Part shown: positions 9,581-13,303 of the stretch, piece by piece | How the letters are laid out: each line of letters begins with the position of its first letter | How positions within the stretch are numbered: the stretch's first letter is position 1 | UHGV virus genome: UHGV-0143644 | Strand: one strand, 5' to 3' | From: a virus | DNA: 26,059 bases | Made by a program: the position numbers and the translations under genes | The notes under the pieces: generated by a model | Seen by the model: only the letters and a program-made list of their open reading frames with translations | The model's database searches: none | Told to the model about the DNA's origin: nothing

Positions 9581-9614
9581 GCGCTTTGTCAGCGCATCAT
9601 CGAAGTTAAAGAGC
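9581..9614 (-). promoter_or_regulatory. nutL: boxA-like GGCTCTTTAA plus boxB hairpin GCGCUGACAAAGCGC
   Basis: Minus strand reads ...CAGGCTCTTTAACTTCGATGATGCGCTGACAAAGCGCG...; the boxB stem-loop with GACAA loop is the P22 type, matching the N protein. Confidence 0.75.
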
Positions 9615-9654
9615 CTGCCAATCTGTTCCGTTTGGCTGCCAGCGTCCTGCTGAT

Positions 9655-9735
9655 GGCGATGATAATGAACCAATAGTTCGATATTATCAAGAACTATAAG
9701 TACGAATTGTTTGTGGCTCATTAACTTAATGAGAT
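9655..9735 (-). promoter_or_regulatory. Candidate pL promoter and OL operator region
   Basis: Minus-strand -35 TTGATA (plus 9684-9689), 17-nt spacer, -10 CATTAT (plus 9661-9666). Inverted repeat ATAGTTC-N11-GAACTAT (9672-9696) overlaps the -35. A 17-bp perfect palindrome CTCATTAACTTAATGAG lies at 9716-9732. Confidence 0.45.
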
Positions 9736-9871: not shown

Positions 9872-9899
9872 GAAAAGAAAAACCGGCGCTGAGGCCGGG
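9872..9899 (-). terminator. Intrinsic terminator downstream of the cI-distal membrane-protein gene
   Basis: Minus-strand hairpin CCGGC-CTCAGC-GCCGG followed by TTTTTCTTTT, starting 6 nt after the stop of the 9905..10804 gene. Confidence 0.65.
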
Positions 9900-9904
9900 T
9901 ATAA

Positions 9905-10804
9905 TTATTTGATTATTTCTTTTATAAAGACTTCTTTCGGTTGGTATTTTTTATCTGATGATTTGAGCTGGTACGTTATTGTTATATCAGCACGTACAGC
10001 AAATTTACCTGCAAAATCTGATGGGTTTACGTTGGGGCCAAGAACCATATTTACTCTTCGATCTATTAATCCAGGGATAACAGCAGCCCAACCTTTCTCT
10101 GGATTGTCGAGGTCTAATGCACGGATTTCAACATCAACATCAAAATGATCCTGAGTATATGACTCTGGTGTGAAGACAACTTCAGTTGGGGCTTTTTTAA
10201 TGGTTTCAGCGGGAATGGTCACTGTACCACCCCCTGTACCTATGACCATCGTAGATCCTTCGTCTGCCCTAGCTGGGGCAAGCGTCTTAATGGAACTTTT
10301 GGCAAGAGTCTTCTTATTGGTTACCGTGCTTTCTATGATTGCTTGAAGACGGTCAGGTGAAATATTAGCCTCACCGGCACCAATATTGATGATTGTATTG
10401 TTATTTGCTTCAAAGTGGGAGGTGTTGCTTGGAGCCATAGCCTTAGTTGCTAGAACTAAGCCATATCCAACCAGACCAATAACAACAGCACCAACGAGAG
10501 CGTTTCTCATTTTCCCATTTCCGATCTTTGCATGAGCGCCAGCAAGAAACTTGTCCATTTCTTCTTGGCTACCAAAGAGGAGTTTAATAACAATATCTTC
10601 ATAAAGGCTTCCTGCTTCTAATCGCGCAACATGCACCGATATATCAAGGATATTAGCCCCTGTCAGTTCCTGCAAAACACCTTCTGATTGTTTTGCGATG
10701 GCCTCCCACCCTTGAAGGGAGGTAATCACATCTTTGATGCTTACAGGTTCTTTAGTTGAATAATATATGTTTTCGGTAAAGGTTAAAGATAATTCTTGGG
10801 ACAT
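9905..10804 (-). CDS. Unknown single-pass membrane protein (299 aa) in the rexAB position; candidate exclusion / abortive-infection function
   Basis: Clean ORF with GAGGG Shine-Dalgarno 5 nt upstream. One hydrophobic helix (ALVGAVVIGLVGYGLVLATKAMA, about aa 103-125). AT-rich codon usage. Lies between cI and OL/pL and is followed by a terminator. Confidence 0.8.
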   Translation of the reverse strand: MSQELSLTFTENIYYSTKEPVSIKDVITSLQGWEAIAKQSEGVLQELTGANILDISVHVARLEAGSLYEDIVIKLLFGSQEEMDKFLAGAHAKIGNGKMRNALVGAVVIGLVGYGLVLATKAMAPSNTSHFEANNNTIINIGAGEANISPDRLQAIIESTVTNKKTLAKSSIKTLAPARADEGSTMVIGTGGGTVTIPAETIKKAPTEVVFTPESYTQDHFDVDVEIRALDLDNPEKGWAAVIPGLIDRRVNMVLGPNVNPSDFAGKFAVRADITITYQLKSSDKKYQPKEVFIKEIIK

Positions 10805-10933
10805 CCGAGCCCTCGCTGTTTCTTTCGATTTGCTGTGTTAAGCTAATATTTTAATATCCATGTTTCTGTTTGCTTGCAGTGTGTTTCTCACCACCATCCA
10901 AACGTACTGGTTACTAGCTATGTGATGATGAAG

Positions 10934-11641
10934 TCATGAACTTTTCAGCCATTCCCTGGCCTCGATGTCATCTAGGTGGCGAGATTGCTTCAGAATACCA
11001 GCTACATACTCCACCTTTGCTACTTGATGATAAGGCAACGTTATTGGCCTGTGGTCTTGGTTGATGCTTGTAAATTGGTATTCTCCGTCTCTGTCATAGC
11101 CAAGAACCTTGATCATGTTGTGCCCTTCAATGGTTCTGACAAACACCTCATCACCTGGGAATACTTTGGTGTTAGGCTCAATGAGTACATATTCTCCTGA
11201 TTTTATTCTGGGCCACATGCTGTCTCCTTTTACACGAAGACCAAAGGCATCTGGATCATCGCTATAAATCTTGAGCCACCCATCGCGCTCTTCGGTCATC
11301 TCGATGGCACCATCAACACCAAGAATTGCCTCACCAACCACGCGCACTAACCCTTTTTTTAATTTGCCAACAATTGAAAAAGTATCTTCATCATTCGCTC
11401 CATTTAACGAAGTGCCGTGCTGAAGCCAAACAACATCAACGTTTAGAAATTTCGCAAGCGCATTCATTTTTTCCTGGCGTGGTAAAGACTCAGCATTAAA
11501 CCATTTGCTAACGCCTTTGGACGAAAGAGAAAGGGCACGGGCTATGGCCATTCCCCTACCATGTTCATCAAGACCAGCTTCTTTACAGGCTTGCGCTAGC
11601 CGCTGGGCGAATTCTTTGCGCACTTTTTCATTCTGAACCAT
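10934..11641 (-). CDS. cI: CI-type prophage repressor, HTH plus LexA-like S24 peptidase domain (235 aa)
   Basis: N-terminal HTH region; C-terminal KGDSMWPRIKSGEYVLIEP...KV Ser-Lys autocleavage domain. The ATG abuts the operator with no Shine-Dalgarno, consistent with a leaderless pRM transcript. Confidence 0.9.
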   Translation of the reverse strand: MVQNEKVRKEFAQRLAQACKEAGLDEHGRGMAIARALSLSSKGVSKWFNAESLPRQEKMNALAKFLNVDVVWLQHGTSLNGANDEDTFSIVGKLKKGLVRVVGEAILGVDGAIEMTEERDGWLKIYSDDPDAFGLRVKGDSMWPRIKSGEYVLIEPNTKVFPGDEVFVRTIEGHNMIKVLGYDRDGEYQFTSINQDHRPITLPYHQVAKVEYVAGILKQSRHLDDIEAREWLKSS

Positions 11642-11719
11642 GAGTACGATACTAAAGCACTTGCAAAAACTTTCAGTTCAACCATAATGCGTACTGAAAG
11701 TACGAAAAAGGACATTCCT
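11642..11719. promoter_or_regulatory. OR operator / pR-pRM divergent promoter region
   Basis: Candidate pR: -35 TTGCAA (11661-11666), 17-nt spacer, -10 ATAATG (11684-11689). Inverted repeats ACTTTCAGT (11669-11677) and ACTGAAAGT (11693-11701) flank the -10. AGTACGA recurs at 11643, 11699 and in OL at 9698. Confidence 0.5.
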
Positions 11720-11947
11720 ATGCAAAATCTTGATGAGCCGATTAAAGGTGTCGGCATCCCTGAAGTTGCGAAGGCTTGTGGAGTTAGCGAAAGGGCTGTC
11801 TATAAGTGGCTCAAAAACGGCTTCCTCCCTAAGACTGAGTTTTTTGGGAAAACGAAATACGCATCAAAAATCGAAGAGATTTCTGGTGGCAAATATCAAG
11901 CAAGCGAAATGCTTGAAATAAGCAAAAAGAACCTTCTGGCAGCATAA
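11720..11947 (+). CDS. cro: Cro-like HTH repressor (75 aa)
   Basis: MQNLDEPIKGVGIPEVAKACGVSERAVYKWLKNGF... Start set at the second ATG, which has an AAGGA Shine-Dalgarno; the 11687 ATG sits inside the predicted pR -10. Confidence 0.7.
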   Translation: MQNLDEPIKGVGIPEVAKACGVSERAVYKWLKNGFLPKTEFFGKTKYASKIEEISGGKYQASEMLEISKKNLLAA

Positions 11948-12053: not shown

Positions 12054-12353
12054 ATGGAACAAACAAATTACAGCAAACTATCACAGCGCGACGTTGATCG
12101 CGCAGAAACAGATTTACTTATCAACCTGTCAACGCTTACTCAGCGCGGTCTGGCAAAGATGATTGGCTGTCATGAATCGAAGATAAGCAGAACAGACTGG
12201 AGGTTTATAGCTTCGGTCTTGTGTGCTTTTGGCATGGCATCAGACATCAGTCCGATTAGCAGAGCTTTTAAGTATGCGCTTGATGAAATCACCAATAAAA
12301 AACGCCCGGTGTGCAAGACCGAGCGTTCTGAACAAATCCAGATGGAGTTCTGA
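12054..12353 (+). CDS. cII: CII-like transcriptional activator (99 aa)
   Basis: C-terminus TNKKRPVCKTERSEQIQMEF closely matches lambda CII (TNKKRPAATERSEQIQMEF); N-terminal part differs from lambda, indicating a mosaic. Confidence 0.8.
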   Translation: MEQTNYSKLSQRDVDRAETDLLINLSTLTQRGLAKMIGCHESKISRTDWRFIASVLCAFGMASDISPISRAFKYALDEITNKKRPVCKTERSEQIQMEF

Positions 12354-12385: not shown

Positions 12386-13303
12386 ATGACAAATACAGCA
12401 AAAATACTCAACTTCGGCAGAGGTAACTTTGCCGGACAGGAGCGTAATGTGGCAGATCTCGATGATGGTTACGCCAGACTATCAAATATGCTGCTTGAGG
12501 CTTATTCGGGCGCAGATCTGACCAAGCGACAGTTTAAAGTGCTGCTTGCCATTCTGCGTAAAACCTATGGGTGGAATAAACCAATGGACAGAATCACCGA
12601 TTCTCAACTTAGCGAGATTACAAAGTTACCTGTCAAACGGTGCAATGAAGCCAAGTTAGAACTCGTCAGAATGAATATTATCAAGCAGCAAGGCGGCATG
12701 TTTGGACCAAACAAAAACATCTCAGAATGGTGCATCCCTCAAAACGAGGGAAAATCCCCTAAAACGAGGGATAAAACATCCCTCAAATTGGGGGATTGCT
12801 ATCCCTCAAAACAGGGGGACACAAAAGACACTATTACAAAAGAAAAAAGAAAAGATTATTCGTCAGAGAATTCTGGCGAATCCTCCAACGACCGTCTGGA
12901 AAAGTTTTTTTCAGCTCACCCTGAGGCAGTGATTTACACCCCCAACTTCACCAAGTGGGGAACAACTGCTGACCAGCAATGCGCAGAGTGGATCCTCGCC
13001 CTGCTCGAAAAAGTTAAACCCTTCCCGAAGAAACCCGTCATGGCCGCCTGGGCTAACGACGTACGCCTGATGCGTGAACTGGACGGCCGCAGTCATCGCG
13101 AAATATGCGAGCTATTCCAGTGGGCAAGCAAAGACGCGTTCTGGCACACCAATATCCTCTCGCCTTCAAAGCTCCGCGCTAAGTGGGACACGCTGAGCCT
13201 TCAGAGAGATGCTGGCCGCAGGACGAATACCGCGAGCACCCAGGGCATCGACTTCAACAACACAGACTGGATCAACGAGGTGTTCGATGGAAAGACTATC
13301 TGA
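12386..13303 (+). CDS. O: Replication initiator O, lambda type (305 aa)
   Basis: MTNTAKILNFGRGNFAGQERNVADLDDGYARLSNMLLEAYSGADLTKRQFKVLLAILRKTYGWNKP... matches lambda O; the ori iterons lie inside the gene. Confidence 0.92.
   Translation: MTNTAKILNFGRGNFAGQERNVADLDDGYARLSNMLLEAYSGADLTKRQFKVLLAILRKTYGWNKPMDRITDSQLSEITKLPVKRCNEAKLELVRMNIIKQQGGMFGPNKNISEWCIPQNEGKSPKTRDKTSLKLGDCYPSKQGDTKDTITKEKRKDYSSENSGESSNDRLEKFFSAHPEAVIYTPNFTKWGTTADQQCAEWILALLEKVKPFPKKPVMAAWANDVRLMRELDGRSHREICELFQWASKDAFWHTNILSPSKLRAKWDTLSLQRDAGRRTNTASTQGIDFNNTDWINEVFDGKTI
12734..12819 (+). repeat. Lambda-type replication origin: four O-binding iterons, followed by an AT-rich tract
   Basis: Four ~18-bp inverted-repeat iterons (ATCCCTCAAAACGAGGGA, ATCCCCTAAAACGAGGGA, CATCCCTCAAATTGGGGGA, ATCCCTCAAAACAGGGGGA), then an A-rich stretch at 12820-12860. 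Confidence 0.85.

Follow-up and report, generated by a model that had tools for sequence, protein, structure and literature searches.

An uncharacterised 299-residue protein encoded by a mobile cassette in the cI-to-pL slot of a lambda-type immunity region is a candidate anti-phage factor

The cI-to-pL slot and its exchangeable cargo

The virus genome UHGV-0143644, analysed as a single stretch of 26,059 nucleotides (the window), harbours a lambda-type immunity region in which the interval between the repressor gene cI and the leftward promoter and operator (pL/OL) is occupied by one uncharacterised open reading frame (ORF) of 299 codons (Table 1). The ORF runs on the cI strand, separated from cI by a gap of 129 nt, and takes the place that rexA and rexB hold in lambda, as stated in an earlier note on this DNA; the Shine-Dalgarno sequence that the note assigned to it is also present. 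On the left, the slot is limited by a pL-like promoter (TTGATA-17-CATTAT, 9690-9662 on the minus strand) with OL operator-like sequences that flank or overlap it. Here, 9666-9686 resembles the rightward operator (OR) sequence at 11634-11654, and 9693-9706 resembles that at 11693-11706.

The same cI protein, or one 98.7% identical to it, is found elsewhere in Escherichia coli with one of three other cargos in the slot: a HipA_2 kinase together with a DUF3037 protein (PADLOC PDC-M66A/B), BstA (PADLOC E 4e-106; strain 2013C-4538, where cI is 98.7% identical), or a DUF3024 protein (PDC-S43) together with an Stk-type Ser/Thr kinase (PD-T4-6/mad6 models), the last interrupted by IS1. All three match PADLOC defence or candidate models. 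The earlier note had proposed comparing this slot across related prophages for variation in cargo, and it is indeed between the same junctions that the three alternatives lie. In the junction alignment, shared DNA extends rightwards from 10906-10916 (28 bp below the cI stop codon) and leftwards from the hairpin at 9883-9898, leaving cargo-specific DNA only from about 9900 to 10905/10915, with the 299-codon ORF as its sole gene. The junctions, on the right the sequence CCAAACGT...GCTATGTGA just below the cI stop, are common to all four cargo types and may act as homology arms for recombinational cargo exchange. The left junction coincides with an intrinsic terminator, which had been credited to the gene as its own; the same hairpin is present in loci with other cargo (L011 and L013), with divergence beginning right after it, and this makes the terminator a feature of the slot, not of the gene. 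An IS1 copy sits within the slot between the DUF3024 and Stk kinase genes of E. coli SMN013SH2 (L013 2807-3501), and the slot thus tolerates insertions.

We detected the cI-cro segment in 427 E. coli genomes, and the 299-codon gene accompanies it in 150 of them, about a third. The ORF is at least 99% identical (region 100%) in about 150 of 5426 complete E. coli genomes, and ORF and region are 99.7-99.8% identical in 11 isolated lambda-like phages, for example Jouyvirus 1H12. Mosaic diversity is known to concentrate in the cI-N region, home of both rexAB and bstA (PMC8585504). The gene is almost certainly accessory cargo, and its description as a mobile single-gene cassette of the known lambdoid cI-to-pL hotspot is well supported. 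In the enteropathogenic E. coli (EPEC) reference strain O127:H6 E2348/69 (L070 2501-3271), the gene is present at 99.8% DNA identity and is annotated by RefSeq as only 256 residues long (WP_244424006.1), which suggests a change near the 5' end or another choice of start codon.

Within the 129-nt gap, the terminator scan revealed no terminator-like site, no promoter scored 8/12 or better (the best sigma-70 match was 7/12), and no stable RNA fold was predicted (z 0.14). Because the two genes share a strand across a gap with no terminator, convincing promoter or stable fold, the simplest and most likely reading is that the 299-codon gene is co-transcribed with cI from the repressor-maintenance promoter pRM in the lysogen. 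Of the two routes of expression raised in the earlier note, a promoter of its own thus lacks a good candidate in the gap, while read-through from pRM stands. The AT-richness to which the note had also pointed is weak, with a GC content of 41.3% for the ORF compared to 45.3% for cI and 43.7% for the left half of the window.

Table 1. Features of the immunity region and of the 299-codon gene (positions in the window)
Feature	Position	Strand	Basis or remark
Uncharacterised ORF, 299 aa, ATG start	9905-10804	-	RefSeq WP_000076839.1; PHROG 4506; sole gene of the cargo cassette
Shine-Dalgarno GAGGG, 5 nt ahead of the ATG	10810-10814	-	Direct sequence reading
Cargo-specific 5' leader, travels with the gene	10805-10905	-	Homology to BstA, Stk and HipA_2 loci ends at 10906-10916
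Conserved right junction	10906-10933	-	Directly downstream of cI stop; ~97-99% identity with L011, L012, L013 (other cargo)
Intrinsic terminator (conserved left junction), stem-loop CCGGCCTCAGCGCCGG + T-run	9873-9898	-	Terminator scan
Hydrophobic helix NALVGAVVIGLVGYGLVLATKAM, residues 101-123	codons 10436-10504	-	Hydrophobicity and AlphaFold2 helix
Motif of highest conservation, EANNNTIINIGAGE, residues 132-145, following directly on the hydrophobic helix	codons 10370-10411	-	Alignments
cI-type repressor, HTH_3 + Peptidase_S24	10934-11641	-	Upstream neighbour; protein identical to WP_000250470.1
pL-like promoter + OL operator-like sites	9662-9706	-	Left limit of the immunity-region slot
N	9154-9462	-	PF25694, E 1e-40
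sieB homologue	8556-9137	+	PF14163, E 2.5e-22; phrog_1301
cro	11720-11947		Divergent from the 299-codon gene and cI
cII	12054-12353		Divergent from the 299-codon gene and cI

Several observations concern the surroundings of the slot. A second exclusion-type gene, the sieB homologue, lies 0.8 kb from the 299-codon gene and beside N. Public records annotate a 'hypothetical protein' on the plus strand at 9464-9721, and the minus strand offers a 57-residue ORF at 9548-9721; each shares DNA with the nutL leader and the pL/OL operators, and these gene calls are therefore probably spurious. Further to the right, a sharp mosaic junction is located at about 12885, inside the O-like replication gene (12386-13303), where the GC content changes from 43.7% on the left to 55.8% on the right. 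The top five E. coli records, which hold the best contiguous matches to the window, stop matching at 12885, beyond which only matches of 77-80% to Klebsiella, Enterobacter and E. coli phages are found. The prophage resembles a hybrid in which two lineages meet inside the replication gene. Another large accessory gene of this phage type, a 3.9-kb inverse-autotransporter gene, separates replication gene P from the nin region in the prophage of E. coli WP5-S18-ESBL-07 (L010 16624-20532), whose immunity region is identical. The prophage of one E. coli strain with this region adjoins ybhC, a neighbourhood that we take to be the lambda attachment region.

A large family that recurs beside unrelated repressors

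The whole length of the protein aligns with PHROG 4506 (residues 1-299 against profile positions 1-300 of 300, E 1.9e-170), a family listed as of unknown function and hence uninformative on what the protein does. No Pfam, NCBIfam or PADLOC family was matched by the protein itself, no family-level Pfam or PADLOC match was obtained for 73 relatives, and comparison of the family profile with PDB sequences returned 0 matches. The claim that the protein belongs to no recognisable family is thus correct for these resources and wrong for PHROG. An exhaustive HMMER search gave at least 512 representatives of clusters at 50% identity (344 at E <=1e-10), the complete sequences being ~300 residues long and matched end to end. 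Named members come from Enterobacterales, Acinetobacter, Paracandidimonas and Candidatus Accumulibacter, and tblastn adds temperate phages of Pseudomonas aeruginosa. A single PADLOC PDC-S42 match in one relative (E 2.9e-5) was not used for classification, as the other members lack it.

The repressor-adjacent position recurs in diverged members of the family. In Pectobacterium, a relative of 75% identity directly follows a short CI-type repressor in a prophage with YdaS/YdaT-type early genes; there the 70% DNA identity ends exactly at the ends of the ORF, and the repressor is a different one. In Lonsdalea (52% identity) the gene order is cI, family member, N, while in Acinetobacter (26%) the gene immediately follows an S24 repressor, and in the Pseudomonas phages D14C and U9 (24%) it follows two different repressors with 1-2 small genes in between. 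A scan of viral contigs yielded 51 loci with family members. Among 43 neighbouring proteins scanned across viral and genomic loci, about 36 of which are encoded by the gene directly upstream on the same strand, S24 was detected in 19 and HTH_3 in 19. Individual checks of more distant loci placed an S24 repressor upstream of the family member in L048, L050, L051 and L056, and an HTH_3/CI repressor in L054. This strong preference for repressor neighbours is the same pattern that led to BstA, a family whose close association with repressor loci spans diverse Gram-negative prophages (PMC8585504).

Other slots are used as well. Some family members separate the Q antiterminator gene from the lysis genes, in either orientation, and others lie at the prophage end after the lysis genes or beside a primase gene in an element that we read as satellite-like. 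Four lineages, diverged to 28-41% identity, have the family member just upstream of head protease/scaffold and major capsid genes (L004 6971-9365, L066 6131-8631, L045 5898-8510 and L063 754-2702), two of these loci having Mu-like head genes. Taken together, the family behaves as a mobile single-gene accessory gene, or 'moron'. A gene for a Hypoth_Ymh protein (PF09509, E 1.3e-31) replaces the repressor directly upstream of the family member at L058 3123-3911, an ORF of the same size occupies the same position at L064 3121-3909, and two neighbours in the pooled scan match Hypoth_Ymh. The genes neighbouring the family member at five distant loci gave no PADLOC match.

Predicted architecture of the protein

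An AlphaFold2 (AF2) model built with 37 homologues reached a mean predicted local distance difference test score (pLDDT) of 85.9 and a predicted template modelling score (pTM) of 0.70. The N-terminal part comprises strand beta1 (6-15), a helix (23-48), two strands (54-63 and 67-76) and a second helix (80-94). The hydrophobic helix 101-123 follows (pLDDT 86-92), then helices 125-145, 150-160 and 164-179, and finally a beta-rich C-terminal part (186-297). Of 73 sequences, 72 have one hydrophobic segment near residue 104. Over 19 residues the Kyte-Doolittle mean is 1.87, and a hand sum on the Hessa scale (about +0.1 kcal/mol) makes the segment borderline. Its N-side flank is the richer in lysine and arginine in 60 of the 73. 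The strongest conservation falls on the EANNNTIINIGAGE motif, in which A133, N134, N136, I139, G142, A143 and G144 are invariant in 37 sequences and which can still be made out across 73 sequences at 23-59% identity. A second strongly conserved stretch, IRALDLD...GWAAVIPG, spans residues 227-244, and S66, P206 and W239 are invariant in the 73 sequences.

Taken alone, a single hydrophobic segment with a basic N-side flank would suggest a single-pass protein with its N-terminus inside, as the earlier note had proposed. Residue covariation speaks against this. A mean-field analysis of 213 family members (effective number of sequences, Meff, 162) returned, as a positive control, the beta-sheet ladders that the C-terminal part was expected to show. 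The pair 13-186 ranked fourth (z 9.0, present in 8 of 8 subsamples) and, with 11-190 and 17-184 (z 5.6), forms an antiparallel ladder between beta1 (strand 11-17) and strand 184-190. Additional pairs link the two parts at 59-275, 64-278, 54-297 and 26-257 (z 4.2-4.6). Because covariation shows, if indirectly, the parts before and after the hydrophobic helix to be in contact, they would lie on the same side of the membrane, which casts doubt on a simple single-pass arrangement that puts the domains on opposite sides; the single hydrophobic segment of that proposal stands, and its opposite-side topology conflicts with the ladder. The best reading is of one alpha/beta body (1-95 and 181-299) with an inserted helical segment, and a pTM of 0.70 fits a single compact unit. 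The hydrophobic helix would then be a hairpin-type anchor or be shielded in the resting state. It covaries with residues 29, 36, 85, 167, 174, 205 and 214 (z 3.7-5.1).

The search by profile and structure that the earlier note recommended led to no confident match to a known family. Foldseek against the PDB gave nothing at E <=1e-3, only a weak M16-like topology, and we rejected an M16 (pitrilysin/insulinase) fold, as all E values exceed 1e-3, the template modelling (TM) scores are 0.13-0.22 and the HxxEH motif is absent. Against BFVD, Foldseek retrieved an uncharacterised myovirus protein (E 1.7e-8) and a DUF6575 protein (E 2.3e-4, TM 0.39), the latter as a lead only. DUF6575 is a domain of one validated PD system (Vassallo et al. 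2022, PMC9519451), and kinship with that defence protein was set aside after 0 of 73 family members matched Pfam DUF6575 at E <=0.01. Neither a kinase nor any other enzyme domain was detected by Pfam in the protein or its relatives, and no DNA-binding motif was found in the protein.

Candidate function and competing explanations

Several known systems resemble this gene in position or in proposed logic. Lambda rexA and rexB likewise fill the cI-to-OL/pL slot on the cI strand with no terminator in between, and the logic may be alike, with a cytoplasmic sensing part and a membrane-active part expressed in the lysogen. Lambda uses two genes, whereas here one gene stands alone between conserved junctions, and RexB is usually described with four membrane helices compared to the one hydrophobic segment of the 299-residue protein. 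The 73-sequence profile gave hhalign probabilities of 0.1% against RexA and 0.1% against RexB. BstA of Salmonella BTP1 and relatives is encoded, as here, by a single gene for ~300 residues directly downstream of the prophage repressor, with a Rho-independent terminator at its end. The two proteins are unrelated (BLASTP E 3.5 against the BstA of locus L012, hhalign 0.2%, no PADLOC BstA match), and the BstA paper places its action at sites where phage DNA replicates, whereas the present protein has a hydrophobic helix. The Stk-type kinase (PADLOC PD-T4-6 family) shares the slot and the same cI allele, and differs in being a protein kinase (PF00069). Lastly, exclusion proteins of the P22 SieA/SieB type are also prophage-encoded in the immunity or early-left region and expressed in the lysogen. 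SieA has 164 residues, about half the size of the present protein, and was not recognised by the profile (hhalign 0.3%), and PF14163 (SieB) is matched by the neighbouring ORF and not by the 299-residue protein. Repressor-adjacent prophage cargo is thus a known kind of element, here represented by an uncharacterised family that is unrelated to the slot's known occupants.

Because cargo is swapped beside the same cI and the family recurs beside unrelated repressors across Gammaproteobacteria, we regard the gene as accessory cargo of the lysogen for which an anti-phage role is the likeliest. The argument from position made in the earlier note, for accessory cargo expressed in the lysogen, is strengthened by the same two observations. 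We consider an anti-phage function probable, though by no means assured. In the mechanism that we postulate, the protein would protect the lysogen against other phages: its alpha/beta body would be cytoplasmic and sense a cue of infection, and the glycine-rich hydrophobic helix, with the invariant polar, Asn-rich EANNNTIINIGAGE segment, would anchor in the inner membrane or enter it, probably in oligomeric form. The outcome would be either loss of membrane integrity, an abortive infection in which the logic of RexA plus RexB is combined in one chain, or obstruction of processes at that membrane. Taken as a whole, the proposal that this is an anti-phage cargo whose product works at the inner membrane, with abortive infection as the favoured mode, is advanced tentatively. 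Abortive infection by membrane permeabilisation, taken by itself, is possible and somewhat doubtful. The boldest version, a new family of one-chain RexAB-like effectors in which the hydrophobic helix would rest against a soluble alpha/beta body until the body senses a phage cue, whereupon this helix and the Asn-rich helix would insert, oligomerise and abort infection through an inner-membrane pore, and which would have spread via repressor-adjacent slots in Gamma- and Betaproteobacteria, is speculative and seems to us improbable.

Some points weigh against this interpretation. Expression from pRM, the anti-phage role, membrane action and oligomerisation are all features that we infer, and pore formation and oligomerisation are pure conjecture. 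A tandem dimer with a 40-residue linker was modelled by AF2 with a pLDDT of 52 and a pTM of 0.33 and is uninformative on oligomerisation. At a Meff of about 160, the covariation signals of the hydrophobic helix are moderate. The evidence from location is circumstantial, since accessory slots also hold virulence and fitness genes, and the four diverged relatives that adjoin head protease and capsid genes might point to a different role. Finally, neither WP_000076839 nor PHROG 4506 is mentioned in the searchable papers or the DefensePredictor supplements, a search that excludes the survey of E. coli prophage defences by Brenes & Laub 2025, where a prior test is possible.

The strongest competitor is superinfection exclusion at DNA entry, in which an inner-membrane-anchored protein would block genome injection without killing the cell, by way of ejection or tape-measure proteins or of the entry route, after the model of P22 SieA, HK97 gp15 or the membrane-bound SNIPE. 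A single gene lacking enzymatic motifs, with a conserved hydrophobic segment and a basic N-side flank, suits such a role. The prophages that carry the family have very different virions, which fits a general block of entry, and an entry block requires no self-immunity on induction. There is also precedent for membrane-level entry defence by a prophage protein (PMC13190303). The lack of SieA similarity and of a nuclease or other effector domain argues against this explanation, as does the covariation, which places both large parts on one side of the membrane, presumably the cytoplasm because there is no signal peptide, and leaves little or nothing in the periplasm. On this evidence we judge exclusion at entry to be rather unlikely.

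A second alternative is a lysogenic-conversion or fitness gene unrelated to defence, whose membrane-associated product would alter envelope physiology, stress tolerance or virulence; lambda bor and lom are models for conversion genes, and such a role was once proposed for bstA. It would account for residence in lysogen-expressed accessory slots, for the absence of a match to defence hidden Markov models and for the wide occurrence in host-associated Enterobacterales, Acinetobacter and Pseudomonas. We nevertheless find it unlikely, as the alternative cargos of exactly this slot are defence or defence-candidate genes and the family is also present in environmental betaproteobacterial and metagenomic phages, where a part in host virulence would be improbable. 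A phage-intrinsic function, in control of lysis-lysogeny or induction or in head assembly, could draw on the tight repressor linkage over wide divergence and on the four head-gene lineages, but is very improbable: unrelated genes replace the 299-codon gene beside the same cI, N and pL, so that related phages do without it, most E. coli genomes with this immunity region lack it (150 of 427 carry it), and the family occupies several unrelated slots in both orientations.

The cI-N slot houses RexAB, the oldest known abortive-infection system, and BstA, and the present analysis adds a third protein family that is unrelated to them. The family is large, contains no known domain and uses repressor-adjacent slots in prophages of Enterobacterales, Acinetobacter and Pseudomonas, and about 3% of complete E. 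coli genomes carry the gene, EPEC E2348/69 included. The defined junctions ease cargo-swap experiments. Should it prove to act in defence, the gene would represent a widespread one-gene system overlooked by present defence finders and a tractable model for how one polypeptide could couple sensing to action at the membrane.

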